Of a stretch of 64,000 nucleotides of DNA, positions 15,601-56,292 are shown piece by piece. Every line of letters starts with the position of its first letter. Within the stretch, counting starts at the first letter, position 1. Location: contig CAWEXP010000010.1 of the NCBI GenBank assembly GCA_963813065.1, positions 96,250-160,249 on the forward strand, given 5' to 3'. The notes under the pieces were generated by a model. It did no database searches. It saw only the letters and a list, made by a program, of their open reading frames with translations, and was not told the origin of the DNA. Position numbers and translations under genes: made by a program. Origin of the DNA: Candidatus Kaiserbacteria bacterium (lineage in GTDB: Bacteria > Patescibacteriota > Minisyncoccia > Phycocordibacterales > Phycocordibacteraceae).

Positions 15601-16326
15601 AAACTAGGACACGGCGTGTCCTAAATTTAGAGTTCGATGCTTTTGCTCTCGCTGGCGATAATTGGATCCGAAATAATGGAGCGTATTTCTTTCTGTTGTT
15701 CTTGGGTCGTGCCAAGAACTGGGCGTAATTCACTCATCTGCAAAATGGAGGGAAAATTCTTAGACTCATTGTAGTCGAGATAACTACTCCAGCGATAGGC
15801 ATGCAATTCGTCGAGTGCATCTTTTGCATGGCGAACACCTCCCTGTCGCCATTCAGGATGGCTCAAATCAAGGGGATTAAGATGAATATAGTAAGGAACA
15901 TACATAAAATGTGCATCACGAGTGACGAGAACCTTTCTGAAAGTTCCTTGCCAGAGAACGCCAGAGCGTTGATATTTTTCATTTACATATTTCGCGTAGC
16001 CCATATTCAGTTTCCGCATGAATAAAGAGAGCGAGCCTTCTTTTGTGGGGGAGACGAGCAAGTGGTAGTGGTTTGGCATGAGTGCGTACGCATGAATGTG
16101 CACAAGGAGATCCCGTTTATGCGGTGCCTCACGTGCTTTCAGTATATAGTTTGGCGCCGAGCAAGTATCATTGAATATGTACATATCATGGATAAAACGA
16201 AGATAGTCTCCGTCTTCCATAAAGACTTTTCGTTTATCGACACCCCGATTTACCAAGTGATAAAACTCCATCGAATGTCATATTAGCAAGCCGTTTCAAA
16301 CTAGGACACGGCGTGTCCTAAATAAG
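15601..16326 (-). mobile_element. REPtron 1: RayT/IS200-type Y1 transposase gene flanked by identical about 27-bp direct copies of palindrome REP1 (TAGGACACGGCGTGTCCTA)
   Basis: REP1 lies at 15605-15623 (immediately 3' of the stop) and at 16302-16320 (5' of the start). The extended identical flanks are AAACTAGGACACGGCGTGTCCTAAAT. Confidence 0.65.
15627..16271 (-). CDS. REP-associated tyrosine transposase (RayT/IS200-like, Y1 HUH) copy 1
   Basis: HUH motif NHYHLLV, and Y-motif HAYRWSSY. N-terminus MEFYHLVNRGVDKR is typical of Y1_Tnp. Confidence 0.75.
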   Translation of the reverse strand: MEFYHLVNRGVDKRKVFMEDGDYLRFIHDMYIFNDTCSAPNYILKAREAPHKRDLLVHIHAYALMPNHYHLLVSPTKEGSLSLFMRKLNMGYAKYVNEKYQRSGVLWQGTFRKVLVTRDAHFMYVPYYIHLNPLDLSHPEWRQGGVRHAKDALDELHAYRWSSYLDYNESKNFPSILQMSELRPVLGTTQEQQKEIRSIISDPIIASESKSIEL

Positions 16327-16389
16327 AGTGGATAAGTTGAGTCATAAATTTCTGACACGAAATCTGAAAATGTGCTAGGGTGAGGTTCT

Positions 16390-17370
16390 ATGGCATTTGT
16401 TGATGAGGTACGGATACACGCAAGCGCCGGCAAGGGCGGCGACGGCGTCATTCGCTGGTTGCGCAATAAAGAGACCGCACGCGGCGGGCCCAGCGGTGGC
16501 GACGGCGGCAGAGGCGGCGATGTGATCGCGATCGGTGTTCGCGATCTCGCAGTACTTTCGAATTACCGGTACGAAAAAGAGTTTCGCGCCGAGAATGGTG
16601 AAGATGGCGCCGGACAATTGAAGCACGGCAAGAATGGCTCCTCGGTTATTTTGAAAGTTCCGGTTGGTACCGTTGCCAGAATTATTGAGACGGGAGCAAC
16701 GTACGAGATAACCAACGAAGGTGAGGAGGTCGTCATCTTCAAGGGCGGCTCGGGAGGGAAGGGGAATGCCCGATTCAAGGGTGCGACGAATCAGAACCCG
16801 TTCCAGCAAACGATGGGCAAGCCAGCCCAGGGTGGGGATATCGATCTGACGCTCAAGATCATCGCGGACGCCGGTCTCGTCGGCCTGCCCAACGCGGGCA
16901 AGTCCTCCCTCCTCAACGCGCTAACCCGTGCCAAGAGCAAGGTCGGTGCCTACGCCTTCACCACCCTCGAGCCGAACCTCGGCGACTTCTTCGGGTTCAT
17001 TCTTGCGGACATTCCGGGCCTCATCGAGGGTGCCTCGTCCGGCCGAGGGCTCGGCACAAAATTTCTTAAGCACGTAGAAAGAACAGGAATCCTCTTACAT
17101 CTCGTCTCGGCTACCCAAGATGACCCTGTCGCGGCGTATAGGGAGGTGGAGAAAGAGCTCTCGGCCTTCGGTCATGGCCTGGAGGCGAAGAGGGAAGTTA
17201 TTATCCTCTCAAAAACTGACCTCATTAGTCCTGCCGAGCGAGAAACCAAGCTCGAACTGCTGGCCCGCGAGACCGGTCGGGAGGTGGTGGGCGTCTCAAC
17301 CCTGGACCCCGACTCCCTTAAGGATTTTTCGGACTATCTCGCCAAGCTCTTCCGTACCAAACCCGCTTAG
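16390..17370 (+). CDS. obg: GTPase Obg/CgtA
   Basis: Obg-fold glycine-rich N-terminus (GGDGGRGGDV), then G1 GLPNAGKSSLLNA, DIPGLIEGA, and the C-terminal domain. Confidence 0.9.
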   Translation: MAFVDEVRIHASAGKGGDGVIRWLRNKETARGGPSGGDGGRGGDVIAIGVRDLAVLSNYRYEKEFRAENGEDGAGQLKHGKNGSSVILKVPVGTVARIIETGATYEITNEGEEVVIFKGGSGGKGNARFKGATNQNPFQQTMGKPAQGGDIDLTLKIIADAGLVGLPNAGKSSLLNALTRAKSKVGAYAFTTLEPNLGDFFGFILADIPGLIEGASSGRGLGTKFLKHVERTGILLHLVSATQDDPVAAYREVEKELSAFGHGLEAKREVIILSKTDLISPAERETKLELLARETGREVVGVSTLDPDSLKDFSDYLAKLFRTKPA

Positions 17371-17385
17371 TGCTAGGATGGCCGC

Positions 17386-18801
17386 ATGGAGTTCCGCCCA
17401 ACTATCGGCCTCGAGATTCACGCCGAATTAGCCACCGCAACCAAGATGTTTTGTTCGTGCGAGAACAATCCGGACGAGGCTCGTCCGAATGTGAACGTGT
17501 GCCCGATCTGCCTCGCGCATCCCGGCACTTTGCCCGTTATCAATCGCGAGGCCGTGCGCCAGGTGCTCCGCGTCGGCACCGCGCTCGGCTCGCGGCTCGC
17601 GGACTATAGCGAGTTCGACCGCAAGAGTTATTTCTATCCGGACATCCCGAAGGGGTATCAGATTAGTCAGTACGAACACCCACTCGTTGCAGGTGGCTTG
17701 CTCGCCGGCGTCGCGATAACGCGCGTGCATCTCGAAGAAGATACTGCACGCTCAACGCACGCAAAAAATAAATCACTCATCGATTTCAATCGTGCAGGCG
17801 TGCCGCTCATGGAGCTCGTCACCGAGCCAGTCATCCACGATGCCGAGACGGCGGGGAAGTTCGCGCGCGAACTCCAGTTACTTCTGCGTACCCTCGGCGC
17901 TTCCGAGGCGAATCTCGAGAAGGGAGAGATGCGTATCGAAGCGAATGTCTCCATCTCTGCGGAAGAAGGGAAGTTCGGTACCAAGACCGAGGTGAAGAAT
18001 CTTAACTCGTTCCGTTCAGTCGAGCGCGCCATCGCGCACGAGATCGAGCGACAGACCAAAGCACTGCTCGCCGGAGAGAAACTTATTCAAGAAACACGCG
18101 GCTGGGACGAGTCTAAGCAGACGACCTTCCATCAACGCTTTAAGGAGGGGAGCGCAGACTACCGCTATTTCCCGGAGCCCGATCTCCCCTCGCTTCGCCT
18201 CTCTGAGGTGCCAGAATTTTCGACAGAGGTTCTGCGCGCAACACTTCCAGAATTGCCTTGGATTCGCCGCGCACGCTACGAAGCACTCGGCGTCAAGAAA
18301 GAATATGTCGACGTCCTGGTCAGCGATGATTTTTTACAAGCGCTCTTCGAAGGTGTGGTGAAGCGAAGTGAAGAATCTGATTCGAAGATTATTGCGCTCG
18401 CGGTAAATTACCTCATGTCAGACGTGGTCAGTTTGATGCCGGGCTCTGCACGCGAGGCGAGCGAAGATTTTATTGATGCGTTTTTCACGTTGATGCGCAT
18501 GGTGGAGAAGGGCACCGTCTCTTCACGCGGTGCCAAGGATATACTCGGTGAGCTGTATCGGAATGGCGGTGAGCCCACTACAATCGCAGAGGAACTCGGG
18601 CTTGTGCAGGTGCACGATGAGGGGGCACTCAAGATAGCGGTGGCAGACGTCATTGCGGCCAATTCCGGGCCAGTTGCGGACTATCGAGCAGGGAAGGAGG
18701 CGGCGCTTCAGTTCCTTGTTGGGGCCGCCATGAAGAAGACAAAAGGCGCTGGTAACCCAGGCAAGTTACGGGAGATCTTCGTCGCCGAGCTGAATAACTA
18801 G
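17386..18801 (+). CDS. gatB: Asp-tRNA(Asn)/Glu-tRNA(Gln) amidotransferase subunit B
   Basis: PTIGLEIHAELATATKMFCSCEN...CPICLAHPGTLPV, then the GatB/YqeY C-terminal region. Confidence 0.9.
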   Translation: MEFRPTIGLEIHAELATATKMFCSCENNPDEARPNVNVCPICLAHPGTLPVINREAVRQVLRVGTALGSRLADYSEFDRKSYFYPDIPKGYQISQYEHPLVAGGLLAGVAITRVHLEEDTARSTHAKNKSLIDFNRAGVPLMELVTEPVIHDAETAGKFARELQLLLRTLGASEANLEKGEMRIEANVSISAEEGKFGTKTEVKNLNSFRSVERAIAHEIERQTKALLAGEKLIQETRGWDESKQTTFHQRFKEGSADYRYFPEPDLPSLRLSEVPEFSTEVLRATLPELPWIRRARYEALGVKKEYVDVLVSDDFLQALFEGVVKRSEESDSKIIALAVNYLMSDVVSLMPGSAREASEDFIDAFFTLMRMVEKGTVSSRGAKDILGELYRNGGEPTTIAEELGLVQVHDEGALKIAVADVIAANSGPVADYRAGKEAALQFLVGAAMKKTKGAGNPGKLREIFVAELNN

Positions 18802-18861
18802 ATTTTTGGGCTATACACAGTACCTCTCGCATCCGAGCCGAGAAAGCCTTATACTGAAAGC

Positions 18862-26200: not shown

Positions 26201-29200
26201 AACAACTACTTCGCGGGCAACCTTGGTGTCGGCGTCACTTCGCCCAGCTACAAGCTCGACGTCGCGGGATTCATCAACACCGACCAGTACAGCGGCTACA
26301 AGCAGGCGGGAAATACGGTCTTGTATGCGAGCACGACGAACGCGAGTCTTGCGGTGGGTGCATCGAGCGCAGCTGCATGGATGGCGGCGAGCTCCACACT
26401 TCTTTACAATATCGCTATCGGCAGTGGCGCACTCAACACAGCTCCCACTTCTGCCGGTACGGCACAGTTCAACACTGCCATTGGTGCCAACTCGCTGTTG
26501 AGGCAACACCACGGGAAATAGAAACTTCGGGTTGGGGTTCAGTGCGCTCAACCTCAACACGAGTGGTTCCTACGACACAGGGATTGGTTACCTCGCCCTT
26601 AGCACCAACATTGCTGGTTCGAACAGCATCGGTATCGGCGGCAATGCTCTTCGTTTCAACACTGCCACAAATAATATTGTTGCTATAGGTCATGATGCGG
26701 CGTGGGGCAACACTGTCAGTTACTCAAACCAAGGCGGTACCTATATTGGTTATCAGTCTGGAGCTAATGCTTCTACCAACTCCGACTACAACACATTCTT
26801 GGGCTACCAGTCCGGTTTTGGAGTGACAACAGGTAATGACAATATTATCCTCGGCGTGAACCCTAATACGGGAGGTGGCAATAATCTCACCACTGGCGCC
26901 AATAACATCTTGATTGGCTACAACGCCATTGCGCCCTCGGGAGCCGCCGCCAACAACCAGCTCAACATCGGCAACTTCCTCTTCGGCACGGGGCTCACGG
27001 CAACTTCGTCTTCGACTTCGCTGCCCACGGCGCTCACCGGCAACTTGGGCCTCGGCACCTCCACTCCCTCTTCGACTCTCTTCGTGCAGAACAATTACGG
27101 TGCCGGCCCCGCCTTCACCATCGCCTCCTCCACCAACTCCTCGGGCACCACTGCCAACACCCTCCTTACTGTCTTGAATAATGGCAACGTCGGCATCGGG
27201 ACGACCTCGCCGCTCACCTCGCTCGATGTCGGCGGCCAGGTCACCTACGTCGGCCCATTCTCCGCCTCCAACATCCCGGTCGCTTCGTTCTCTGCGAACT
27301 CCAATGCGGTATCAGGGGTCCAGTTTACCAACGTCAACACCGGCACTGTTGCAGACTTCCGCTTCGCGATTGCCGACCAGACCGGCAACTACACTGCGCT
27401 CACGATGCCTTCCACCGGCAACGCCGCTGCTACCGTCTTTGGCCTCGCGCGAAGCACGGCGACGTTCCTCTTCAATAACGGCGGCACTACGCGCGCCTTC
27501 GGCATCGGGACGCTCGGTGCAAACGATCTCGTGCTCGGCACCAACGGCACTGATCGCCTCCACATCACCTCCGCCGGCAACGTCGGCATCGGCACCACCT
27601 CACCCTACGCCAATCTATCGGTGATGGCAGGGGGGAATTATGCGAGCCTCGCGCCAAGCACGGTCTTCGCGATTGGTTCGAGCACGGCGGGCACAGCGAC
27701 GTCGACACTATTCAGTATCAATAGCTCTGGTCTAGTGACAAATAATGGGAGCGAGACTATCGCGGGTAAACTTGGGATAAACAACACCAACCCGCAATAC
27801 ACTCTCGACGTCGCGGGCTTCATCAACACCGACCAGTACAGCGGCTACAAGCAGGCGGGGAACACCATTCTCTATGCGAGCACGACCAACAGCACGCTCG
27901 CCGTTGGTGCCTCAAGTGCGGCGGTATGGATGGCAGCCTCCTCGACGCAGTGGTATGACACAGCGGTCGGGTATGGCGCACTTGCTACGACACCCACCAC
28001 GGGCACAGCACAATATAACTTCGCGATCGGTTACCAAACCCTCAATTCCAACACTGCTGGACTCGGCAATACGGCGATTGGAATGCAATCCTTGCTAAAC
28101 AACAGCACTGGTTCCAATAATATTGCCATGGGTGGTGCTACTCTTGGTCAGAATACTACTGGCAGCAACAATACAGCTGTCGGTGTGAGTGTACTTCGTT
28201 ACAACACGCTCGCAGCAAACTCGACTGGTTTCGGTGCATACGCCGGATACGGTAACGCGCTCTCATACTCAAACACCGGCGGCACCTACATCGGCTTTAG
28301 AACAGGGTATTTTGCCTCCACCAACTCCGACTACAACACCTTCCTCGGATACCAGGCGGGGTATGACGTTACGACTGGCAATGACAACATAATCATAGGT
28401 GCGAACCCGAACACGAGTGGCTCCCACCTCACCACGGGGATGAACAACATCCTCATCGGGTACAACGCCATCGCGCCCGAGGGAGCGGCCGCGAATAACG
28501 ACCTCAACATCGGCAACATCATCTTCGGCACCGGGCTCACCGCGACGAGCTCGGCGACCACGGTGCCGACCGCGCTCTCGGGGCTCATCGGTATCGGGCA
28601 CGAGCACGCCGTGGGCGAATCTCTCAGTACAGAGCAATTACGGTAGCAGTGGGGTCGGCGCGACGACGACTCTCTTCGCCATCTCCTCATCCACCAATGC
28701 GAGCGGGAGCACGAGCAACGGCCTCTTCATCGTGCAAAACACACCCTATACCAATTCCAACGTGCGTGTGCTTGTCAACGAGAACCAACTACTAAACGTC
28801 AATGACACGATGGAGGTTAACGGCACGCTGAACGTCAATGCGCTCACTATCAACCAGGCGAGTCTCATCGGCAACACCAATGGCTACAGCTGGGTACGCG
28901 GCGCGGCCGCGCAGGGGATTGCTTTCCTCGTGAACGGCACGACTGGTGCCACAGCACCTACTGGCGCCGCAGCAGTCATCACTTCGGGAGGGAACGTCGG
29001 CATCGGGACGACGACTCCCGCATATCCTCTGGATGTAGTGGGAAGCGGCGAGCAGTTCGAGAACACATACCTTTCGTTGAATCCGTATGCGAGCACCAAC
29101 GCACAGATCTCAGTGAGCGGCGGCAGGGCTTACTTCGGCTATGACAGTTCGAACGGGAATGCGGTCGTACAGGGAGCTGGCGGCAAGGGAATCGAGTTTA

Positions 29201-32200
29201 ACGTCAGTAACTCCACTTTCGCCTCCGGCACTGCGGCAGTCCTCAGCTCAGCCGGTAACCTCGGCATCGGGACGACATCGCCTTACGCCAATCTCGCCAT
29301 ACAGAATAATTACGGCTCCAACAACACGACGCTCTTCTCGATTGGCTCCTCGACCGCGAGGAACGGGAGCACGGCGAGTACGCTACTCAAGGTGAGCAAC
29401 ACCGGCGCACTCACCCTCGCCAACTTGGCAGGGAATGCGAACGGGGTGGTCTATCCAGACGCCAACGGCACCCTCAACGTCACCGCCGCAGGCGGTGCAG
29501 GCACGCTCTGCCTCATCGCGACCAACGGCGGCGTGCCCACCTGGGGCTCCTGCGCAGGCTCGGCCTCCACGGTCTGGAGCCAGCTCTCCAACCCCACCGG
29601 CAATCTCGCGCTCTCGATGGGCGCCAACACTACCACCTTCACGGCCCAGAACACGGGCAGCAATAACCCCTTCACCTTCGCCGACAACACCAGCAACGCT
29701 GGCACGGGCATCCTAGTCAATATCGCGAGTGCGGCCTCCTCGGCCATCACGCCCTTCCAGGTCTCGGCGGTAGGGAATCCGGCGTTGACGGTCGCCGCCT
29801 CCGGCAACGTGGGCATCGGGACCACCTCTCCCTATGCCAATCTCTCGGTGATGGCGGGCGGTAATTATGCGAGCCAGGCGGCGAGTACGGTGTTTGCGAT
29901 TGGTTCCTCCACCGCGGGCACGGCGACGAGTACGTTGTTTAGTGTTAACAGCGCGGGGAATACGAACATTGCAGGGTCGCTGACAGTCGCGGGCAATCTT
30001 GTCTCGGTGCTCAATCAGACTGGCACTGGTAATGTGGTGTACTCGGCAAGCCCGAGCCTTACAGGAGGTCTATTCATTACGCCCGGTCCCCTTACGATGG
30101 GCACTTCAGGTCAACGAGGTGTTATTTCAGTACCACTTGCTAACCAAATACAGATAGGTCCGGCCGATGTTGATACGACTGCCGCTATGGGCGCCCAAAT
30201 CCTTCGTTCCCAAGGCGCGCTCGCAGGCGGCACGGCAGATCAGGCGGGCGTGAACTGGACATTCATCGCTTCGCCCGGCAAAGGTCTAGGTGCGGGCGGT
30301 TCCTTCGTCTTCCAGACGGTGCCCGCTGGTTTGGTGAGTAATACAGTCGTCAACGCGCCGGTTACAGCATTGGTTATTAATTCAGCGGGCCTCGTCGGCA
30401 TCGGGACTACATCCCCTTATGCGAAGCTCTCGGTGATGGTGGGAGGGAACTATGCGAGCCAGGCGGCGAGTACGGTGTTTGCGATTGGTTCCAGCACGGC
30501 GGGCACAGCGACGTCGACACTATTCAGTATCAATAGCTCTGGTCTAGTGACAAATAATGGGAGCGAGACTATCGCGGGTAAACTTGGGATAAACAACACC
30601 AACCCGCAATACACTCTCGACGTCGCGGGATTCATCAACACCGACCAGTACAGCGGCTACAAGCAGGCGGGGAATACGGTCTTGTATGCGAGTACGACGA
30701 ACGCGAGTCTTGCGGTGGGTGCATCGAGCGCAGCTGCATGGATGGCGGCGAGCCCGACCCTTTTACAGAATGTTGCCATTGGAGTCGGAGCTCTTGCGGC
30801 AACTCCGGCTGTGGGCTCACCTGGCGACCAGTACAACACGGCAATTGGCTATAACGCGCTCAATGCAAATACCACCGGCTCGTACAACTTCGCTCTCGGG
30901 TCTTGGGCGCTCCTCAACAATACAAGCGGTGTACGCAATACCGCTCTCGGTACGAGTGCTCTCTACACAAACAACGGTTCATACAATTCCGCATTTGGCA
31001 TGAATGCTCTTTATTCCAATACCACTGGCTCCAACAACACAGTTTTCGGTTATTCGGCAATTCGTTATGCATCCGCGGTAAACAACGTTACTGCAATCGG
31101 TTATCAAGCTGTAAGTGGGGGTACCACCTTCTCCAATCAAGGCGGCACCTACGTCGGTTATGGTTCAGGCTATTCGGCGGGCACCAACTCCGACTACAAC
31201 ACCTTCCTCGGGTACCAGGCGGGGTACCCCAACACCACAGGATTCGACAACATCCTGATAGGGGCGCAGAAGAACACCATCGGGGCAGGGTACCTCTCCA
31301 CCGGCGGGGACAACATCGGCATCGGTTTTAACACTCTCTTCCCGAGCGCGACCGCCAACAACCAGCTCAACATCGGCAACTTCCTCTATGGCACGCTCCC
31401 TGCCACTACCACCGCCTCCACCTTCGGCCTGCCGACCACCGGCAACTTCGGTATTGCCACCACCACCTCCGCACTCTTCGGCATCCACGCCAACAACGGC
31501 GCGAGCTACTCCTCGCTCTTCATGATTGGTTCTTCTACCGCGAGTGCGACTACCACGCTCTTCACGGTCTTGAACACGGGCAGCGTCGGCATCGGCACCA
31601 CCAGCCCGCAGTGGCTGCTCTCGCTCTCCGGCGGTGGGCAGAGGATTAAGGAGACGAGCGACATCCTGAACGCGTTCTCGATAGAGAACTCGGTCGGCTC
31701 TACGACCGTCGCCGCCGATACGATCGACACGAGCGGCAACATCTTCTCGGTCGCGACCAGCTCCGGCACCGATTACTTCGACGTCGCGGCGAACGGTAAC
31801 ATCGCGCTCTCGACGAGCGTGTACTCGACCTGTAGCAGTCTCTCCACCAGCGGTGGCGTCATCCAGTGCTCGGTCTCTGATCAGCGATTGAAGCAGAACA
31901 TCACCACGCTCGCGCCAGCGACTGGCCTCGCCGCCATCGACGCATTGAATCCGGTTTCCTACACCTTCATCGACCCGACGCGTCCGCAGGGCACGCAGTA
32001 CGGATTGATTGCGCAACAGGTACAACAAGTGCTCCCGGCGCTCGTCGCCACTTCCTCGCCGACGGCGCTCACGCCCGACGGTACGCTGACCGTGAACTAT
32101 GACGGCCTCATCGCGCCGCTTATCGAGGCAGTCCAACAGCTCGACGCGCGGACGAAGGGGATTTCGAATTCGGCTTCAAGCACCGTGATGACCTTCGACA

Positions 32201-33600
32201 TCTCGGGCAACGTCGGGCTCGGCGTCGCACCGAGTGCCGCAGATAAATTGACCGTCGGCGGCAACATTTTCGCGCAGGCATACGAGGTGCCAGCCGGCAC
32301 GGTGACGGCGTATACGTTTGGCGCGGCAAGTGGAAGTCAGACTTCCAGTTCCGACGGAGGAAGTCAGACTTCCTTTGCCGCGCCGATACCGAGTGTGGTG
32401 CTTACGGCAGGTGGACGGGTCGACCTCTACAAGCTCGCAACCTACAATCTCTCGGGTATCTCCGCGCTTGCGGTGCGCCTCCAGACCGACGAGATGCGCC
32501 TGACCTCGCTCGAGGCACGCGTCGCAGAGCTCGAGAATGGTTCCATCGCCGTCTCGACCTCGACGCCGTTCTCCACCTCGACCCTCGCCTCCGCCTTCTC
32601 CGGCCTCGGCGCATACATCCAGCAGGGCATCGCGCAATTTGGCATCCTCGTCGCCGACCAGTTCGTCGCCGCGACCAACTCGGCGGGTACGAGCTCCGCG
32701 GGCACCGTGACGATTCCGGCCGGCAACACGGTCGCGGTGGTGACGAACGCGTACGTCAATCCGGCGTCCAAGATTTTCGTCACCTTCACTGCCTCGACCA
32801 CCGCCTCTTGGTACATCAGCGACAAGCAGAACGGCTCCTTCAAACTCATCCTCTCTGCGGCGCCGACGAGCGATATCTCCTTCGACTACTTCATCGTCCA
32901 GACGCAGGGCCAGATCGCGACCAGCACGCCCGTTTCTGAAGGAGGTCAGACCTTCACAAATCCTCAAGGTCTGACCTCCCAGCCCGTGATTACTCTGCTC
33001 GGCGACAATCCGCTCCATCTCTCGGTCGGTGGTACCTTCGTCGAGCCGGGCGTGAGCGTGCATGACTCTGATGGCACCAATGCGTACGTCACCTTCGTCA
33101 ATGGTGTGCAAGAAACCATTTCCTCGACGACGCTCGACACGTCGAGCCCGACCACTTATATCATCACGTACAGCGCGACCGACAGCTCGGGCAACACTGC
33201 GACCGCGCGCCGCTCGGTGATCATCGGCAATCCAGACGGAACCGTTTCTTCCGGCGCCGGTGGAGGTCAGACCTTAAATCCGAATCCTCAAGGTCTGACC
33301 TCCTCGGCACCGGCTGATACCACGCCACCCGTTGTCACTCTCAATGGTTCGGCGGCACTCACCACCTCGCAAGGCACGACCTTCACTGATCCAGGCGCAA
33401 CGGCAACCGATGATACCGATGGTGACCTGACCAGCAAGATTAAAGAAACGGGTACCGTCGACACGACAACCCTCGGCCTCTACACGCTGACCTACTCGGC
33501 CACCGACTCAGCAGGGAACACCGGTACCGCCTCGCGCGTGGTCTCGGTTGTCGCGGCTCCGAGTGCGCCAAGCGACGCTTCCACAACGCCCGCGGGTTAA
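20213..33600 (+). CDS. Giant (about 4,460 aa) HTH-TM-anchored, Gly/Thr/Ser/Ala/Asn-rich repetitive surface protein. It has tail-fibre-like repeats, an S74-type intramolecular-chaperone motif and two DUF5011 Ig-like domains. One gene, split by two frameshifts near 26500 and near 28600.
   Basis: ORFs 20213-26521, 26532-28646 and 28732-33600 carry the same repeat unit (GNVGIGTTSPYANLSVMAGGNYA...AGFINTDQYSGYKQAGNT(V/I)LYASTTN...) straight across both junctions; the reading frame just slips at GC runs. Other domains: HTH_17-like N-terminus plus TM (VFAVVAAFLVVGSGAFIAHAG); SDQRLKQNITTLAPATGLAAIDALNPVSYTFIDP...YGLIAQQVQQVLPALV near 31870; C-terminal DUF5011-like segments (PVITLLGDNPLHLSVGGTF...; PPVVTLNGSAALTTSQGTTF...TYSATDSAGNTGTASRVV). 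Confidence 0.7.
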
Positions 33601-36161: not shown

Positions 36162-36900
36162 CTCCCATGTAGGGTTTCGTAAATCCTACATTCCGTCATT
36201 CAAGCCTGAATCCAGGTTCTAGGTCGCCCTGAGCATCCTTCAGATACTCGGCAAGCGCGCGAGGGTAATTCCCGAGCGCGTTCTTAAAAAGGGAAGTGGT
36301 AAGGACGGAAGGAAAATTTTTCTTGCCGGTGTAATCGAGATAACTGCTCCAGCGATAGGTGTCGAGATATTCCAAAGCTTTCTTTGCACTCTTGATGCCG
36401 TTCTTACTGCGCACGCGCCACTCCTCGGCGCCTTCGAGGTAGTCGAGCGGGTTAAGGTGGATATAGTGCAGGATGTAGTTGAACTGCGCGTCGCGCTCAA
36501 TCAATATTTTCTTCGTCCGCCCTTGGAAAAGAGTGCCCTTGCGCTCGTACCGTTCATTAAAGTAATTCGCATACCCGACATTGAGCTTGCGCAAGAATAA
36601 ACTCACTCCGCCTTCGATTTTTTCTGACAACAGCAGGTGATAGTGGTTCTTCATCAGGCACCACCCATGTATCTCCACAATCCGCTCTCGCTCAATGTAG
36701 GGTTTCGTAAATCCTACATCTGGCGCACAGCGACGCTCAGAGGCCGCAGCAGGTGAGCGGTCGTTGAATTGGTATAAGTTATGGATAAAACGAACGTAGT
36801 CGGAAGAATCAGAAAATAAGTGTCGCCCGTCAACTCCCCGATTGAGTGCATGATATAGCTCGGCCATATAGATGTAGGGTTTCGTAAATCCTACATTCAA
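36162..36900 (-). mobile_element. REPtron 2: RayT-type transposase with palindrome REP2 (TGTAGGGTTTCGTAAATCCTACA) at its 3' flank, 5' flank and inserted in-frame inside the gene
   Basis: REP2 copies at 36168-36190, 36696-36718 (internal; encodes APDVGFTKPYI, absent from copy 1) and 36873-36895. Confidence 0.65.
36196..36867 (-). CDS. REP-associated tyrosine transposase (RayT/IS200-like) copy 2. The likely start is MAELYHALNRGVDGR at 36867; the listed ORF starts at a TTG inside the upstream REP.
   Basis: HUH motif NHYHLLL and Y-motif DTYRWSSY; 55-60 percent identical to copy 1 outside the REP insertion. Confidence 0.75.
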   Translation of the reverse strand: MAELYHALNRGVDGRHLFSDSSDYVRFIHNLYQFNDRSPAAASERRCAPDVGFTKPYIERERIVEIHGWCLMKNHYHLLLSEKIEGGVSLFLRKLNVGYANYFNERYERKGTLFQGRTKKILIERDAQFNYILHYIHLNPLDYLEGAEEWRVRSKNGIKSAKKALEYLDTYRWSSYLDYTGKKNFPSVLTTSLFKNALGNYPRALAEYLKDAQGDLEPGFRLE

Positions 36901-41441: not shown

Positions 41442-42315
41442 ATGGCACTCCTCGACACTGACATCCAAGCGCTCGAACAGAAGGCGGTCGAGATTCGTAC
41501 GACCGTCATCGAGATGCTCGTGTCTGCAGGGAGCGGACACACCGCAGGGCCACTCGATATGGCGGACATTTTCACTGCCTTTTATTTTCATATTCTCAAG
41601 CATGATCCGAAGAATCCGGCGTGGGAAGAACGTGATCGGCTGATTCTCTCAAATGGCCACATTGTCCCGGTGCGCTACGCGGCGATGGCGCACGCGGGCT
41701 ATTTCCCGGTCGAGGAGTGTTTGACTCTGCGGAAGTTCGGCTCGCGTCTCCAGGGTCACCCCGAGCGATTGCGTTTGCCTGGTCTCGAGACGACCTCGGG
41801 CCCACTCGGCGAGTGGCCTCTCGCAGGCCGCGGGCATCGCGTATGCGCTCCGCATGCAGGACACGGCGTATCAATTCAGAAGTTGGACACGCCGTGTCCA
41901 ACTTGGGAAACCGCGGTGTATTGCCTCACGAGCGACGGCGAGCACGATGCGGGCAACACGTGGGAGGCGGCGCTTTGGGCGGGGAAAAATAAATTATCGA
42001 ATCTCACCGCGCGTGGTCGATCGCAACAATATCCAGATTGACGGTATGACCGAGGACGTCATGCCGCTCGAACCTTTTGCCGATAAATATCGCGCATTCA
42101 ACTGGCACGTCATCGAGGTCGACGGTCACAACATCCGCGCATTCATTGAGGCCGTTGAAGAAGCGAAGGCGATCGAAGAGAAACCGACAATGATTATCGC
42201 GCACACCATCGCGGGCAAAGGCGTGAGAGAGATTGAAGGCGACTATCACTGGCACGGCAAACCGCCCACCGCTGAAGAAGCGAAACGATTCCTCGCTGAA
42301 ATTCACCATGCATAA
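41442..42315 (+). pseudogene. tkt: Transketolase N-terminal subunit (split TK), disrupted by three frameshifts and carrying a 25-bp REP1-like hairpin inside the coding sequence
   Basis: SGHTAGPLDMADIFTAFYF..., GHPE...PGLETTSGPLGE | GLSQAAGIAYALRMQD | AVYCLTSDGEHDAGNTWEAALWAGKNKLSNLTA | VDRNNIQIDGMTEDVM...FNWHVIEVDGHN alternate between two frames. Confidence 0.65.
41880..41904. repeat. REP1-related perfect palindrome AAGTTGGACACG-C-CGTGTCCAACTT inside tkt coding sequence
   Basis: 12-bp arms. Its core GGACACG.CGTGTCC is shared with REP1 of REPtron 1. It lies exactly where the tkt frame switches. Confidence 0.6.
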
Positions 42316-45308: not shown

Positions 45309-45942
45309 ATGTTTACGCTCGAAGTAACCCAGAGAAAGGCGGGTAGCCCAGGCGCGCTCCGGCGCGCCGGGTCGGTCCCTGCGGTCGTCTATGGCGCCCA
45401 CCAGGCGTCAACGCCGATTGCGGTCGATGCCCGCGCATTCGACAAGGCCTTCAAGGTCGCCGGCGAGTCGTCGGTCATTTCGCTCACCGGTCTCGGCGCG
45501 GCTATTCCCGTACTCGTCCAGGAAGTTGATCTCGACCCGCTGACCTACCTCCCGCGCCACATCGATTTCTACGCCATCACCAAGGGCGAGAAGGTCGAGG
45601 TCGCCGTGCCACTTGTCTTCGTCGGCGAGTCGGCGGCGGTCAAGGGCGGCGCCAATCTCATCAAGGTGCTCCGCGAGCTCGAGGTCAAGGCCGACCCGAT
45701 GAATCTCCCCGCCTCCTTCGAGGTTGAATCTCGCGCTCCTCGTCAACATCGACGACCAAATTCACGCCGGCGATCTCAAGCTCCCGGCGGGTGTCGAGCT
45801 CATGGTTGAGCCCGAGGAAGTCGTTGCACTCGCGCAGGAAGTGGTTGAGGAGAAGGAGGAAGTCGCACCGGCTGACCTCTCGGCTATCGAGGTGGAGAAG
45901 AAGGGCAAGGAGGAGGCTACAGAGCCCGAAGCCAAAATTTAG
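45309..45942 (+). CDS. rplY: Ribosomal protein L25/general stress protein Ctc, with one frame shift near 45729
   Basis: N-terminal L25 domain ...RRAGSVPAVVYG. The C-terminal LALLVNIDDQIHAGDLKLPAGVELMVEPEEVVA continues in the +1 frame. Confidence 0.75.
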
Positions 45943-45984
45943 GACATCCGATGTCCTAAATGCATTTGGACATCGGATGTCCTA
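45940..45984. repeat. Pair of REP1-family palindromes in opposite orientation (BIME-like doublet): TAGGACATCCGATGTCCTA and TGGACATCGGATGTCCTA
   Basis: Copies at 45940-45958 and 45967-45984, immediately after the rplY stop. The loops CCG and CGG are inverted relative to each other. Confidence 0.55.
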
Positions 45985-46008
45985 ATTCGCGTGCTAAACT
46001 AGCCGGAC

Positions 46009-47376: not shown

Positions 47377-48060
47377 TTAGTCCCTCCAAGGTTGAACCTC
47401 GGCGAAAGTACGCGCATCACTAATCAACGCGTTAATGTTCGGAATTTGCGAATGCTCGTAATAATTCCGCATATTCACCCGGTTCAGTATCGCCGCTTCT
47501 GGTCGGGTTGAGCCGAGGTAATCAGGAAGACTCGAGTAACGATATTCTGCGAGAAAAACATGCGCATCTTTCTGGTTTCGGATCAGGCCCTCTTTCCACC
47601 TCGGTTCCACTAACTCCGCTGGATTCGCATGAATGTAATTTACGAGCCGTTTAAAATAACGGTCGTCGTCAACGTGTTTTGATTTGAAGCGGCCGCCGAA
47701 GAGGGCGCCAGTTCGTTCCTCTTTCTTATTAAAATACATAGTATAGCCGGTGCCGATTTTTTGCATAAAGAGAGCGACTCCATTATTGGAGGTTTGTTGT
47801 AACAGAATGTGGAAATGGTTAGGCATAAGGCAATATGCGCCGATGGCAACCAGCGGATGTTCTCGTGGCCACTCAACAATCTCCTCCAAGGTTGAACCTC
47901 GGTGGTTATCGCCCAAGTGGACGGGTGATTCGTCATTCGCACTCACGAGCAACATGAGAAAACGTTCATAGTCTCGCTCGAAAAGAAAGACATCGCGCTT
48001 ATCGACTCCGCGATTGTAACAGTGATACCACTCGTCTGTTGCGAATGGTTCTCGATTCAT
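47377..48060 (-). CDS. REP-associated tyrosine transposase (RayT/IS200-like) copy 3. The likely start is MNREPFATDEWYHCYNRGVDKR at 48060; the longer listed ORF reads through the upstream REP.
   Basis: HUH motif NHFHILL, and Y-motif EYRYSSLPDY. Confidence 0.7.
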   Translation of the reverse strand: MNREPFATDEWYHCYNRGVDKRDVFLFERDYERFLMLLVSANDESPVHLGDNHRGSTLEEIVEWPREHPLVAIGAYCLMPNHFHILLQQTSNNGVALFMQKIGTGYTMYFNKKEERTGALFGGRFKSKHVDDDRYFKRLVNYIHANPAELVEPRWKEGLIRNQKDAHVFLAEYRYSSLPDYLGSTRPEAAILNRVNMRNYYEHSQIPNINALISDARTFAEVQPWRD

Positions 48061-48102
48061 CCAACGATTGTAGCAATCCCTCCAAGGTTGAACCTCGGTT
48101 TT
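47377..48102 (-). mobile_element. REPtron 3: RayT-type transposase with imperfect palindrome REP3 (CTCCAAGGTTGAACCTCGG) at its 3' end, inside the gene and 5' of it
   Basis: REP3 at 47384-47402 (encodes the last 7 codons, EVQPWRD), 47884-47902 (internal) and 48080-98. Confidence 0.6.
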
Positions 48103-48328
48103 TTCCAGTAGGCGATAACTTACCTCTGGTCCGAGGCCGATTGCCCAGACACCCTCCGCATGCGCAGCGGACGCCAGTATGCCTACCGCCGAAGCGGCCA
48201 ACAGGAGTGTACGCATGGTAGAACCTCGCTGATGTGAAGATCGTTTTCGGACAAATCGTCCGAGTTGGGCACGAGCCCATCCGGGGGCACCTTAGCACGA
48301 GGGTGATTTATGTCAAAAATAGAAAAAG

Positions 48329-48359: not shown

Positions 48360-48387
48360 AAGTGTTGGCAGCGATGCCAAAGAGCTG

Positions 48388-49077
48388 TTACCAGCGGAAG
48401 CTGACGCCGAAACGGAGAACGTCCGCAGTAACGTAGAAGTTGTCGATGTTGCTACCACTGGGGAAGATGTCGCGATCATGCGACGAGCTCAAGTCGGTGT
48501 GTATGAGATGCAAACCGACGGTCCAATGCTCGGTGAATGCGGCGTTCAATCCGGTCTCGCAAGAAGTTCCCATCAGGGCATTGCTCGATGTGGACTTGCC
48601 GTTGACACCATAATCGTACTTGTACCCGTACATGCCGTATGCGCCGCCGCACGACACGGTCCATTGGACAGGCTCGCCGAGGACGTAAAACCCATCCCAG
48701 ACGCCGAGGCGGATGCTGCCGAGGCCAGAGAGGCCTTGGTAGTCATTCTCGCCCCATGCGGGGAACTGCTGTTCCTTCTGGAAGAAGTTTTGCTGATAGT
48801 CGGCGCTGATGGACCAGCCAATCGTCGTATCGCCGATAGGGAAGAGTTCCCGGTCGTACTCGACGCCAACGCCGGCACCAAGACCGCTTGAGGCAGTGGA
48901 GGCCTTATAGAGCGATGGTGCTCCGCCAGACGTTGACCACTCCTTTGAGTTGTTCTTCACGGACGTCTCGCCCATAAAGGCGGTGGTGCGGAGGCCGTTC
49001 CAGTAGTTATCAGCCTTTGCAGCTGGAGCTGCGAATGCCGACACGACCGCCAAAGCGGCAAGCATGGATGTGCGCAT
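48388..49077 (-). CDS. Outer-membrane beta-barrel (OmpA/OmpW/porin-family-like) protein. The likely start is MRTSMLAALAVVSAFAAPAAKA at 49077.
   Basis: Signal peptide with AKA|D cleavage site, alternating amphipathic beta-strands, and a C-terminal ...FGVSFRW aromatic terminus typical of OMP barrels. Confidence 0.55.
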   Translation of the reverse strand: MRTSMLAALAVVSAFAAPAAKADNYWNGLRTTAFMGETSVKNNSKEWSTSGGAPSLYKASTASSGLGAGVGVEYDRELFPIGDTTIGWSISADYQQNFFQKEQQFPAWGENDYQGLSGLGSIRLGVWDGFYVLGEPVQWTVSCGGAYGMYGYKYDYGVNGKSTSSNALMGTSCETGLNAAFTEHWTVGLHLIHTDLSSSHDRDIFPSGSNIDNFYVTADVLRFGVSFRW

Positions 49078-49259
49078 GTTTTTACCCTCGTTGAATAGAT
49101 CTGTGCCGGACAGTGCCGGGTCGTGGGACACCCCACTCCGGGGAAGAGGATAGCATAGTCTAAATTTTTTGTCAAGCTCACTATCCCCATGCTCGCGCCC
49201 ACTGCGGGCGCGGGTGCCCCCTGCGTGCTACGATAAAGCTATACAAGCTACCCAATACC

Positions 49260-52329: not shown

Positions 52330-52371
52330 GCACTTGGCGGCGCGCGGGCCATCTGCTATAGTCCTGTGGCA

Positions 52372-52620
52372 ATGAAGAAAGACATCCATCCCACCACCTA
52401 TCGCCAGGTCATCTTCGAGGACCTCGCCTCCGGTGCTCAGTTCCTTATCGGCTCTACTGTCCGTACGAGCGAGAAGGGTACCTATCAGGGCAAGGAGTAC
52501 TCTAAGATGGTGGTCGAGATTTCGAGCAAGTCGCACCCGTTCTACACCGGCGAAGATCGCTCGCTCGACACCACAGGCCGTGTCGAACGTTTCAAACAGC
52601 GCGCCTCTAAGAAAAAGTAG
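52372..52620 (+). CDS. rpmE: Ribosomal protein L31 (type B, no Cys)
   Basis: MKKDIHPTTYRQVIFEDLASGAQFLIGSTV...HPFYTG. Confidence 0.85.
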   Translation: MKKDIHPTTYRQVIFEDLASGAQFLIGSTVRTSEKGTYQGKEYSKMVVEISSKSHPFYTGEDRSLDTTGRVERFKQRASKKK

Positions 52621-52647
52621 GAATGTGAGGACTTACGAAGTCCAAAC

Positions 52648-54313: not shown

Positions 54314-54451
54314 CCGCGCCTCGCGGCATCCATAATTTTGGGTACGCGATTTTCTTGCTAGAAAATCGCTCAGTCCTCACGCCGTCGCGTTGCGGAGCCC
54401 CAAAATTACGGACGCCGCCCGGCACTATCACATGATATAATTTTCACACTT

Positions 54452-55033
54452 ATGGAAATCACCACCGACATCATTAAACAGCTCCGCGACAAGACCGGCC
54501 TCTCGGTCATGCAGTGCAAGAAGGCAATCGAGGAGGCGAAAGGCGATCTCGCCCAGGCCGAAGTCATTTTGAAAAAGCGTTCGGCAGAGGCCGCAGAGAA
54601 GAAGGCGGAGCGCACGCTCGGCGCAGGCGTGATTGGTGTGTATGTCCACGAAGGCGCCATTGGTGCGATGGCGCACCTCTCCTCGGAGAGCGATTTCGTT
54701 GCGAAAAATCCTGAATTTGTCGCCCTCGCGCGCGAGATTGCGATGCAGGTTGCGGCCACCGACCCGAAGTATGTTTCCGTTGCCGCGATTCCCGCAGAGG
54801 TGAAGAACGCGGCGACCGCCGTCTTCGAGAAAGAGATCGCAGGTAAGCCCGCCGAGATGCAGGCCAAGATTCTCGACGGCAAACTCGCATCCTATTTCCG
54901 CGAGCAAGTCCTGCTTGAACAGCCATACATCAAGGATGAGAGCAAGACCGTTCATGATCTCTTGAACGAAGCCACACAGAAATTCGGCGAGCGCGTTGAG
55001 GTGACGCAATTCGCGCGCCTCTCGGTGCGCTAG
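54452..55033 (+). CDS. tsf: Elongation factor Ts (short form)
   Basis: N-terminal UBA-like IKQLRDKTGLSVMQCKKAIEEAKGDLAQAEVILKK, then the dimerisation core. Confidence 0.85.
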   Translation: MEITTDIIKQLRDKTGLSVMQCKKAIEEAKGDLAQAEVILKKRSAEAAEKKAERTLGAGVIGVYVHEGAIGAMAHLSSESDFVAKNPEFVALAREIAMQVAATDPKYVSVAAIPAEVKNAATAVFEKEIAGKPAEMQAKILDGKLASYFREQVLLEQPYIKDESKTVHDLLNEATQKFGERVEVTQFARLSVR

Positions 55034-55037
55034 TGCA

Positions 55038-55457
55038 ATGGCGTATCTTATTTTTCTTCTTTTCACCATCGCGCTCCTCGGCGGTTTCCTTGCAGTGACC
55101 GCCCTCGAGACGCGACGCGGGGTGCGTGTCTTTCCCCAGCAACGCGCACGTCTCGATCGTGAGGCAGAGCGTGCCGCGTTCATCATTGCGCATGTCGATT
55201 TCGCGAGTTACCTGCGTGAAGAATCGCGTCGCCTCATCGAGCGCATGAGCCACGACCTCGTGCACCTCTCGCTCCAGACCGTGCGCGCGGCTGAGCGTAT
55301 CTTGACACGTCTCGTGCGTCGCCTCCGGACACGCGAGGGGAGCACGCTCGACGCGCCGCGCGAGAGTGCACGCGAGTTCGTGAAGACCTTGGCCGACTTC
55401 AAGGGTCATCTCGAGGCGACACGTCCCGAGATCCCTGATATCAACGAGGTACAATAA
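55038..55457 (+). CDS. Hypothetical protein with an N-terminal TM helix
   Basis: MAYLIFLLFTIALLGGFLAVTAL then an Arg-rich helical region; no recognisable family. Confidence 0.35.
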   Translation: MAYLIFLLFTIALLGGFLAVTALETRRGVRVFPQQRARLDREAERAAFIIAHVDFASYLREESRRLIERMSHDLVHLSLQTVRAAERILTRLVRRLRTREGSTLDAPRESAREFVKTLADFKGHLEATRPEIPDINEVQ

Positions 55458-55462
55458 AAACA

Positions 55463-55537
55463 CGCCGCCCTAGCTCAGTTGGTAGAGCGCCACTTTTGTA
55501 AAGTGGATGTCCCAGTTCGAATCTGGGGGGCGGCTCC
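55463..55537 (+). tRNA. tRNA-Thr (anticodon TGT)
   Basis: 75 nt with a cloverleaf that folds: acceptor GCCGCCC/GGGCGGC, D-arm GCTC...GAGC, anticodon stem CCACT/AGTGG with loop TTTGTAA, T-arm CCCAG-TTCGAAT-CTGGG, and an encoded CCA. Confidence 0.8.
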
Positions 55538-55544
55538 AAAATCC

Positions 55545-56292
55545 ACTCGTGGCGGTGAAACCGCCACACCGTCAGAAAGCTCAGTGCTAAACTATTTTCG
55601 ATATGAGTACGAGGAAGACCCCATTTGCAATTGGTGAGTTCTATCACATCTTCAATCGGGGAGTCGACAAGCGAATAATTTTTACCGATACACACGACAC
55701 AGACAGATTCTTCAAAAGTTTGGTCGAATTCAACGCCACCGATCCGATAGGAAGTCTTTATGAAAACTCTCGTTACCAACGTGGCGGTGAAACCGCCACA
55801 CCGTCAGAGAAACTAGTTAACATAATTGCCTACTGTCTCAATCCGAATCACTATCATCTTATTTTGGAACAGTTAGTTGATGGCGGTATTAGTGAATTTC
55901 TGAAAAGGATTGGCGGATACACTTGGTATTTCAATAACAAATATAAAAGAAACGGCTCCCTGTTTCAGGGCGTATTTAAATCAGTCCACATAGACTCAAA
56001 TGAGTATCTGCTTCACGTCAGCGCGTACGTAAACCTGAATGGTCATGTACACAAACTTGATAGCACGAATACCCAGCTAGTTTCGAGCAGATCAAGCTGG
56101 GGAGAATATACCGAAAAAGGAGCGAGAGGAATTTGTGAAAAAGAGATTGTTCTTGGGCAATTTGGAAATAACGATGAGTACAAAGAGTTCGCGCTCTCGT
56201 CCTTGGAAGCAATCATCCAAAGAAAAGAGGAACTGAAGGATTTCGATACTTTCTTGCTCGAAGAGCCCGAATGGCGGTGAAACCGCCACGAT
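55545..56292 (+). mobile_element. REPtron 4: RayT-type transposase immediately downstream of tRNA-Thr, with perfect palindrome REP4 (GTGGCGGTGAAACCGCCAC) upstream, internal and overlapping the stop
   Basis: REP4 at 55548-55566, 55781-55799 (internal; encodes RGGETATP) and 56273-56290 (contains the TGA stop). Confidence 0.65.
55603..56280 (+). CDS. REP-associated tyrosine transposase (RayT/IS200-like) copy 4
   Basis: EFYHIFNRGVDKR, HUH motif NHYHLIL, and a Y-motif region. Confidence 0.75.
   Translation: MSTRKTPFAIGEFYHIFNRGVDKRIIFTDTHDTDRFFKSLVEFNATDPIGSLYENSRYQRGGETATPSEKLVNIIAYCLNPNHYHLILEQLVDGGISEFLKRIGGYTWYFNNKYKRNGSLFQGVFKSVHIDSNEYLLHVSAYVNLNGHVHKLDSTNTQLVSSRSSWGEYTEKGARGICEKEIVLGQFGNNDEYKEFALSSLEAIIQRKEELKDFDTFLLEEPEWR

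Follow-up and report, generated by a model that had tools for sequence, protein, structure and literature searches.

A 64,000-nucleotide stretch of the genome of a Candidatus Kaiserbacteria bacterium (GenBank assembly GCA_963813065.1, contig CAWEXP010000010.1, positions 96,250 to 160,249; referred to here as the window and numbered from its first letter) carries four genes encoding Y1 (HUH) transposases that resemble RAYTs, the transposases associated with repetitive extragenic palindromes (REPs), and each of these genes is bracketed by copies of a palindrome of its own. The four genes (RayT-1 to RayT-4, or units 1 to 4 when taken with their palindromes) were recovered as open reading frames (ORFs) matching Pfam PF01797 (Y1_Tnp; E values 1e-8 to 3.5e-5 across the four proteins), at the positions given in a preliminary description of this DNA:

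15627–16271, minus strand: RayT-like gene 1, 214 aa, without an internal palindrome (ORF; Pfam Y1_Tnp, E 1.2e-8; HUH and Tyr kept)
36196–36867, minus strand: RayT-like gene 2, 223 aa (ORF; Pfam Y1_Tnp; homologs; AlphaFold2 model)
47377–48060, minus strand: RayT-like gene 3, 227 aa from the ATG at 48060, the ORF being open upstream to 48216 (ORF; Pfam Y1_Tnp)
55603–56280, plus strand: RayT-like gene 4, 225 aa, the most divergent of the four (ORF; Pfam Y1_Tnp, E 3.5e-5)

Pairwise identity among the four proteins is 34–50%, and the HUH histidines and the tyrosine (H68, H70 and Y128) are invariant in their alignment, as are NH[FY]H and Y..N across 81 family members; the catalytic residues of the window enzymes are intact within a Y1/HUH fold. 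An AlphaFold2 model of RayT-2 (predicted local distance difference test score, pLDDT, 64; good in the core) has the order beta1, alpha1, a long loop, beta2, beta3 (HUH), alpha2, beta4 and alpha3. Its best fold match in the PDB was 4ER8, the E. coli TnpA-REP protein with a REP hairpin (Messing 2012, PMC3479197), followed by the IS608, ISDra2 and IS200 TnpA structures, and a PDB search by sequence gave marginal matches only (4ER8, E=0.05). RayT-2 has 4587 homologs at E<=1e-5, and those carrying a source name are all from Paceibacterota, Minisyncoccia or Patescibacteria. More than 580 family loci were confirmed in a scan of reference genomes and more than 580 again in a scan of metagenomes. The signature of the family, drawn from 81 members, is YH[IVL][YL]NRG ... 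NH[FY]H ... Y-I-H-L-N-P-[LVI]-[DK] ... Y[RK][WY]SS..DY, and the proteins, of approximately 215–230 aa, carry the last of these motifs, Y(R/K)(W/Y)SS..DY, as a conserved C-terminal extension. They form a distinct protein clade, to which RAYTs are closer than IS200. A tblastn search of the window detected no RayT gene or fragment beyond the four listed.

The palindromes, REP1 to REP4 for units 1 to 4, lie immediately upstream (5' copy) and downstream (3' copy) of each gene, and units 2, 3 and 4 have a further copy within the coding sequence:

15601–15626: REP1 3' copy, core TAGGACACGGCGTGTCCTA (15605–15623), beginning at the stop codon
16298–16323: REP1 5' copy (core 16302–16320), ending 26 nt upstream of the ATG
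36167–36193: REP2 3' copy (core 36168–36190), 2 nt beyond the stop codon
36695–36721: REP2 internal copy (core 36696–36718), in-frame, encoding D-VGFTKPYI (residues 49–57) in the alpha1-beta2 loop
36872–36898: REP2 5' copy (core 36873–36895), the core ending 5 nt before the ATG
47381–47402: REP3 3' copy (core 47384–47402), encoding the last residues EVQPWRD and the stop codon
47881–47902: REP3 internal copy (core 47884–47902), in-frame, encoding HRGSTLEE in a frame unlike that of the flank copies
48077–48098: REP3 5' copy (core 48080–48098), ending 16 nt upstream of the ATG
55548–55576: REP4 5' copy (core 55549–55567), starting 10 nt after a tRNA-Thr gene
55780–55808: REP4 internal copy (core 55781–55799), in-frame, encoding RGGETATPS
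56270–56290: REP4 3' copy (core 56271–56289, one mismatch), supplying the last codons (EWR) and the TGA stop

REP1 is present as two exact copies, REP2 and REP3 as three exact copies each, and REP4 as two exact copies and one with a single mismatch, against 0.00–0.03 matches expected per pattern in shuffled sequence. These positions are those of the preliminary description, which needs correction in some details. The identical direct repeat formed by the 5' and 3' copies of REP1 is 26 nt long, not 27, and of the translations given for the internal copies VGFTKPYI (unit 2) and RGGETATP (unit 4) stand, but those given for unit 3 do not, EVQPWR being encoded by the flank copies and VEWP not being palindrome-encoded. 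The repeated units are longer than the cores, at 26, 27, 22 and 29 nt in units 1 to 4; in unit 4 all 29 nt are identical between the 5' and internal copies, including a 9-nt non-palindromic 3' tail. Each unit is compact, at about 700–745 bp, and all four have hairpins on the same strand at both ends. Folding as DNA was assessed for all four palindromes: REP1 (-6.4 kcal/mol, z -4.9), REP2 and REP4 form stable hairpins (z -4.6 to -8.0), but REP3, an imperfect palindrome, folds only weakly, at -4.1 kcal/mol (z -1.4) on the sense strand and not at all on the opposite one.

Two features adjoin the units. The tRNA-Thr (UGU) gene upstream of unit 4, at 55464–55538, has a DNA-encoded CCA end and stops 10 nt before the 5' palindrome. 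The RayT-3 ORF remains open from 48061 to an ATG at 48216, and the 52 extra residues start with MRTLLLAASAVGILASAAHA, which looks like a signal peptide and is similar to the N-terminus (MRTSMLAALAVVSAFAAPAAKA) encoded by the neighbouring gene at 48388–49131; unit 3 may have landed in, or mostly replaced, a tandem paralog of that gene.

RayT-1 is the only one of the four genes without an internal copy, as first described, and in the four-protein alignment it has an 8-residue gap exactly opposite the VGFTKPYI of unit 2. The palindrome-encoded residues of units 3 and 4 lie at or beside the same stretch. This places the internal copies in a variable loop and away from conserved residues, and palindromes related to those of the units also occur elsewhere, so that neither of the two observations which together had been expected to overturn the preliminary description was made. 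In the RayT-2 model, residues 44–55, covering most of the palindrome-encoded residues 49–57, have pLDDT values below 50. The internal copies are insert-like and do not represent conserved RayT residues. A public protein of 152 aa (P0057) is 100% identical to the C-terminal 68% of RayT-2 (36196–36867); the gene caller apparently started after the internal palindrome, and such genes may be mis-annotated systematically.

To survey the layout, a hairpin-and-repeat detector that had first recovered the four window units was applied to two sets of 80 loci each, one from GTDB species representatives and the other from metagenomes; 143 genes, all of them in other Patescibacteria assemblies, were evaluable. 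A loop palindrome matching a flank copy, giving the pattern 5', internal and 3', was present in 56 of the 143 genes (39%), and a further 46 (32%) resembled unit 1 in that the only matching copies were the 5' and 3' ones. The palindrome is near-perfect, measures 25–31 nt and differs from locus to locus; its outer arms are rich in AT and its inner stem in GC, around a centre of 1–3 nt, and the locus-specific bases on both arms are common to all copies at that locus. The internal hairpin matched the flanks of its own locus in 25 of 81 loci, compared with 0.9% of cross-locus pairs. Close sister loci (L009, L023 and L041; L013 and L014; U2, L081 and L085) have differing arm bases, each fixed throughout its locus. 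RayT-2 orthologs at 75–79% identity keep the same palindrome family (ATGTAGGGTTTCGTAAACCCTACAT, encoding NVGF[RT]KPYI) and the REP1 core is kept in the closest relative of RayT-1; orthologs at 61–80% identity share the core, and more distant loci differ on both arms. Copy orientation, as defined by the centre, varies between the loci of relatives, with both direct and inverted arrangements, and some flanks carry inverted doublets. The layout is conserved family-wide and is not peculiar to the window, and the comparison of palindromes with proteins indicates that gene and flanking palindrome co-evolve. The description of the window palindromes as private families holds in that each gene has its own, but not strictly, as REP1- and REP2-like copies are found in other genes.

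The same comparison bears on the suggestion that the palindromes are generic elements unrelated to the enzyme, such as RNA hairpins, terminators or operators of another factor, or simply coincidence or assembly artefact. REPs elsewhere can be mRNA stabilisers or terminators (Di Nocera 2013, PMC3733652), and a T-run follows the 3' copy of unit 1. However, the palindromes are locus-specific and co-vary with the gene in more than 100 independent assemblies, chance would supply only 0.00–0.03 matches per window pattern, and a terminator at the internal copies would be detrimental, since these are part of the coding sequence. In addition, a consensus scan of unit 2 found no terminator-like site, and a search of the window sequence against Rfam matched only tRNA and no RNA family for the palindromes. 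Generic elements or artefact are strongly disfavoured by these data, and very improbable.

The flank copies hold a regular position relative to the gene. Across family loci the median distance from the end of the 5' copy to the ATG is 18 nt, and in most loci the 3' copy starts within a few nucleotides of the stop codon. A -10-like hexamer, scored by consensus match only, was present in the spacer between 5' palindrome and ATG in 50 of 85 loci, compared with 22 of 85 in the 45 nt upstream. In the window such boxes lie between 5' palindrome and ATG in unit 1 (TAATAT), unit 3 (TACAAT) and unit 4 (TAAACT), and in unit 2 a TATAAT box lies directly upstream of the 5' palindrome. From these sequences the 5' palindrome looks as if it borders on the core promoter or overlaps it, in a gene that seems to have a short leader or none. 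The argument is drawn from the family-wide position of the -10-like boxes and not from the scan of unit 2, where the one promoter-like match was outside the unit on the opposite strand.

The internal copy is equally restricted in position. Its centre always lies 53–86 nt upstream of NHxH, in the alpha1-beta2 loop, and this loop is approximately 6–8 residues longer in genes with an internal copy, the distance from the N-terminal motif to HUH having a median of 216 nt with an internal copy and 198 nt with flank copies only. Over the 88 loci with matching flanks, the best loop match had 0–2 mismatches in 47 and 3–5 mismatches in 5 (approximately 7 expected from the cross-locus background), and in the remaining 36 it was at the background mismatch level. 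Only 5 loci had a good copy in the remainder of the gene, which is several times the length of the loop; per nucleotide, the loop site is enriched approximately 50-fold over this remainder. The internal copy is all-or-none, either near-identical to the flanks or absent, with no decaying intermediates; were it a passive insert in a loop under weak constraint, partly decayed copies would be expected. Something keeps the copy matched, either selection for recognition or repeated re-copying, and in both cases whatever recognises the flank palindromes would also be acting within the gene. On the protein tree the trait has phylogenetic signal, with 28 Fitch changes compared with at least 37 in 200 shuffles, and the internal copy is missing from the unit 1 clade and from one large clade. 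A single ancestral insertion was considered as the sole explanation and ruled out by the state changes, at least 28 in number, together with the variable orientation.

Taken together, the reading preferred here, with a probability of roughly 0.6, is that the four units are paralogous modules which have diverged from one another and belong to a large, so far undescribed clade of RAYT-like Y1 (HUH) single-stranded DNA transposase genes in Patescibacteria, and that the enzyme acts on the substrate copy in its own gene. Each module consists of a cognate near-perfect palindrome, the predicted REP-like hairpin substrate, at the putative core promoter, then the gene, then the same palindrome at the stop codon, with a third copy in three of the four modules placed in-frame in the one permissive surface loop, alpha1-beta2, just before HUH. 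The IS608 and TnpA-REP enzymes recognise hairpins in single-stranded DNA and cleave and rejoin by means of the tyrosine. By analogy, the enzyme encoded in the module would bind the hairpin of its palindrome when the DNA is single-stranded, cut beside it and rejoin the ends, and this reaction could spread copies to intergenic sites and to in-frame loops of housekeeping genes. Existing copies would be repeatedly re-copied or overwritten, preferentially in cis, such that the copies at one locus stay identical and those at different loci diverge. Re-copying of this kind would explain the concerted evolution, the variable orientation, the non-palindromic tail shared by the copies of unit 4 and the lack of decay. 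We infer both the identity of the agent, the adjacent enzyme, and the maintenance by re-copying from this pattern. Binding at promoter-proximal and intragenic copies would interfere with expression, and negative autoregulation is a likely consequence of it.

A related explanation regards the internal copy as a cis-regulatory self-target under selection: the enzyme, as a dimer that has two hairpin sites, would bind the promoter-proximal and intragenic hairpins of the unwound gene and block transcription or nick the gene, giving autoregulation or a self-limiting switch. This differs from the preferred reading only in invoking selection for function in place of passive re-copying. The internal copies are near-perfect or absent, whereas palindromes in the transketolase gene discussed below include weak or decayed forms, and the approximately 50-fold enrichment of the loop site points the same way. 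The 5' copy abuts a -10-like box in 50 of 85 loci, an arrangement by which many insertion-sequence transposases autoregulate. Three perfect direct repeats 177–530 nt apart should also promote deletions, and their retention would imply either benefit or constant regeneration. Yet 32% of members, unit 1 and whole clades among them, keep the flanks without an internal copy, at least 28 gains or losses are required on the tree, and loci differ in how the internal copy is oriented with respect to the flanks. A selected self-target is possible on this evidence, and about half as probable as the preferred reading. A broader statement, put forward tentatively, is that the family keeps a working recognition hairpin both in its own coding sequence and on its promoter and that the protein acts on its own gene, the palindromes marking either an autoregulator operating at the level of single-stranded DNA or the footprint of REP replacement ('overwrite'); the latter would be the mechanism by which REPs are copied and homogenised, and would also write palindromes into slots in housekeeping genes.

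Whether the units move as a whole was assessed from their copies and neighbours. Near-identical duplicates of a whole unit were found neither in the window nor in approximately 590 kb of related loci, and in four other loci the co-resident genes were diverged paralogs, 35–64% identical. Identical proteins occurring on 4–20 contigs always had the same neighbours. A RayT gene lies directly upstream of the GAPDH gene in a pentose-phosphate cluster in three genomes (L085 7089–7775, L169 3000–3671 and L170 2870–3538). A gene of the RayT-2 type is retained beside GAPDH in both L085 and L169, and in L170 the slot is held by a member of a distant subfamily, whose palindrome is different. Genes of the RayT-2 type that share one palindrome family were found in three different genomic contexts. 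Because of these three contexts and of the different subfamily in the GAPDH slot of L170, movement or replacement over long time-scales is likely. Visual inspection of the flanks of the loci compared revealed no obvious conserved target motif outside the palindromes.

These data also address the view that each unit is an autonomous insertion sequence (IS) of the IS200/IS605 type, with the palindromes as left- and right-end subterminal hairpins, a unit of approximately 720 bp moving via a single-stranded circle, and the internal hairpin as a by-product. The size of the units (approximately 700–745 bp), the same-orientation end hairpins, the ORF running into the 3' hairpin and an N-terminal YH motif more like that of IS200/IS605 TnpA than of RAYTs are all consistent with this, as are the three contexts of RayT-2 homologs (75–79% identity) with one palindrome family and the occupation of the GAPDH slot by different subfamilies. 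However, near-identical copies are nowhere found, the proteins being 34–50% identical within the window and 35–64% in the four co-resident pairs, identical proteins keep constant neighbours, and solo palindromes are dispersed without a gene. Moreover, no NCBIfam IS200-type model matched the window proteins at E<0.01, and at 215–230 aa with a C-terminal Y(R/K)(W/Y)SS..DY extension they exceed TnpA (approximately 150 aa; PMC2817692). Autonomous elements of this type are therefore an unlikely explanation; the behaviour is housekeeping-like and RAYT-like, not IS-like, in the sense of Bertels 2017 (PMC5581495). As to density, which the preliminary description had called unusual, 4 further RayT genes were found in approximately 535 kb around 83 focal genes in relatives, compared with three extra genes in 64 kb in the window. 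This is approximately 6 times the rate in relatives (Poisson probability of at least three, approximately 0.013). The claim holds modestly; the cluster is unusual but, given that single genomes with several RAYTs of distinct REP classes are known, not unprecedented.

Copies of the window palindromes outside their own units are few, and both lie in housekeeping genes:

41880–41904: orphan REP1-like palindrome AAGTTGGACACGCCGTGTCCAACTT in the transketolase N-terminal subunit gene, with a compensated arm change relative to REP1
60892–60914: orphan REP2-like copy, 22 of 23 nt, in-frame in a PheT-like gene

The PheT copy is translated as VGLTKPY, in the same frame as in RayT-2. In the transketolase N-terminal subunit of Patescibacteria the turn between RMD and RVYC is a fixed 4-residue turn in 108 of 120 homologs (P0121–P0240), and the other 12 carry unrelated inserts of 4–14 extra residues at this turn, a 90%-identical homolog being without the insert. 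At the DNA level three of these inserts are perfect 25–29-nt palindromes of different families and three look decayed; the loci with the transketolase hotspot are the window (41880–41904), L085 (4371–4395) and L170 (within 6001–6873). The site is either a target hotspot or a long-lived slot in which the palindrome is overwritten. Extra in-frame codons relative to close homologs without the palindrome were found for the transketolase and for the RayT loop. The transketolase N-terminal subunit gene of the window (41442–42315) is itself broken, its frame switching at least twice relative to an intact ortholog (approximately 41800–42015), with one switch at the REP1-like palindrome; neighbouring ORFs (2102, 1622 and 884 aa) are intact, and the gene is either a pseudogene or carries assembly indel errors.

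Relatives have 23 orphan cognate copies in 338 kb, and one locus (L112) has 13 copies of a palindrome of approximately 37 nt in 20 kb, 10 of them intergenic, including the pair flanking the RayT-like gene, and 3 intragenic. The family includes textbook REP spreaders, and the dispersal seen within the window is sparse.

Other palindromes were also observed. The window contains 25 perfect hairpins, compared with 1–12 in shuffled sequences. Two intergenic REPIN-like inverted doublets, at 13052–13100 and 45937–45985, consist of TACGGAAGTCAGACTTCCGTA with GGAAGTCTGACTTCCGTAC and ATTTAGGACATCCGATGTCCTAAAT with TTTGGACATCGGATGTCCTAA; they match none of the four RayT palindromes, and their cognate genes are presumably elsewhere in the genome. 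A direct doublet of GGAAGTCAGACTTCC, 27 nt apart at 32331–32374, lies in-frame in a 1622-aa ORF (28732–33600) and is translated SGSQTSSSDGGSQTSF. In the PheS-like gene two different perfect palindromes, AACCCGCCCTGGGCGGGTT and ACCCGACTCGTCTGACGAGTCGGGT, stand side by side at 58744–58793, between the DTFW and LRTHT motifs, in a segment only approximately 5 residues longer than in Thermus thermophilus PheS. Simple insertion into PheT and PheS was considered and is unsupported by comparison with the T. thermophilus structures (0 and approximately 5 extra residues, respectively). At locus L083 of a relative, an RsmD-like methyltransferase gene contains a 53-nt inverted doublet of the palindrome of RayT-2 type (5570–5622), and the HisRS gene contains a GGAAGTC-type palindrome (TACCGAAGTCTGACTTCGGTA; 8659–8679).

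Several observations weigh against the interpretation of the units as RAYT-like modules acting on their own genes. REP1 and REP2 have one orphan each in the 64-kb window and REP3 and REP4 no copy there outside their own units, so that dissemination is barely visible in the part of the genome covered, and PheT has no extra length at its palindrome relative to T. thermophilus PheT. The flank copies are direct and not inverted in all four units, contrary to a strict RAYT criterion, orientation in such near-perfect palindromes being defined only by the central 1–3 nt. No palindrome was present at the detector thresholds in 41 of the 143 surveyed genes (29%), and with at least 28 changes of state on the tree the internal copy is dispensable. 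The sole NCBIfam match, NF047646 (REP_Tyr_transpos, equivalog), scored 21.6–47.8 bits, below its cut-off of 80. Nunvar 2010 (PMC2817692) gives two motifs as specific to RAYTs, a conserved Thr in the N-terminal part and, adjoining the Tyr, NP(L/V)(R/K)xG. The first is absent, the first strand reading YH[IVL][YL]NRG, and so is the second, K being found in 29 of 81 members and Gly not being among the three commonest residues two positions on. Cutting of these hairpins by these proteins is a prediction, and short-tract RecA-mediated conversion between copies may be an alternative homogenising force.

The term REPtron-like, applied to the units in the preliminary description, is borne out by the Y1/HUH proteins, by 4ER8 as best structure, by a REP-associated model as only NCBIfam match and by the co-varying palindromes. 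REPtrons whose REPs co-evolve with the gene have been described (Nunvar 2010, PMC2817692; Bertels & Rainey 2011, PMC3116915), Stenotrophomonas has six RAYTs with distinct REP classes in one genome (PMC2817692), and RAYTs have no near-identical duplicates, are housekeeping-like and are vertically retained (Bertels 2017, PMC5581495). The units resemble REPtrons in having a Y1/HUH gene between its own palindromes, gene and palindrome co-evolving, in the sharing of a genome by diverged paralogs with distinct REP classes and without near-identical duplicates, in the dispersal of cognate palindromes, sometimes as inverted doublets, and in TnpA-REP as best match of both fold and hidden Markov model. 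They differ in belonging to another protein clade, which scores under the NCBIfam cut-off and has YHxxNRG at the N-terminus, a conserved C-terminal extension and neither the RAYT Thr nor NP(L/V)(R/K)xG, and in near-perfect palindromes of 25–31 nt without a general GTAG or CGTC tag. The tight fixed geometry, promoter-abutting and stop-overlapping and with direct flanks in the window, is a further difference, as are the palindrome maintained inside its own coding sequence in approximately 39% of members and the host, Patescibacteria and not Proteobacteria.

With IS200/IS605 elements (IS200, IS608 and ISDra2) the units share the fold, the HUH and Tyr chemistry, the first-strand YH motif and same-orientation subterminal hairpins at the ends of a unit of approximately 700 bp. 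Unlike these elements they do not occur as multi-copy identical elements, solo hairpins are dispersed and the protein is approximately 70 aa longer; in IS608-type elements the left- and right-end hairpins are only similar, whereas here they are identical and a third lies in the ORF. In-frame occurrence within host genes is also documented, for REPs and for Rickettsia palindromic elements (RPEs) (Di Nocera 2013, PMC3733652). Like those, the palindromes described here lie in-frame in loops of housekeeping genes (PheT, PheS, transketolase, HisRS and RsmD), sometimes as dimers. Unlike those, they are only approximately 24–30 nt long (8–10 codons), and the host gene can be the putative transposase of the element itself, with one conserved site and no decay. 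A full-text literature search found no RAYT or REP in Patescibacteria, no such clade and no cognate REP in a RAYT gene, and the word 'transposase' is absent from those supplementary tables of Di Nocera 2013 that are in text form. REPtrons and in-frame REPs and RPEs are known, and what appears to be new here is a RAYT-like clade in Patescibacteria together with a cognate palindrome kept inside its own gene.

To our knowledge, the cellular role of RAYTs and the copying of REPs and REPINs are still open after 15 years, and the systems studied are almost all proteobacterial. The clade described here is very large within Patescibacteria: its proteins number in the thousands, and its loci in the hundreds both in reference genomes and in metagenomes. 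The pairing of enzyme and substrate can be read from the gene sequence itself, where three identical copies stand at fixed positions, and it recurs with other palindromes in more than 100 independent loci, which provides a natural co-variation data set for protein-hairpin specificity and a compact, testable substrate set of an enzyme of approximately 220 aa and a 25-nt hairpin. The layout points to an enzyme acting in cis on its own gene, by autoregulation or copy replacement, and the internal copy would be a regulatory site or a homogenised passenger accordingly. The repeated in-frame occurrence of short palindromes in housekeeping proteins of ultra-small genomes bears on annotation and on protein evolution in this phylum. 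If the overwrite reaction is real, it would be the long-sought mechanism that copies and homogenises REP populations, and the same reaction would write palindromes into recurrent slots in the housekeeping genes of these gene-dense genomes.

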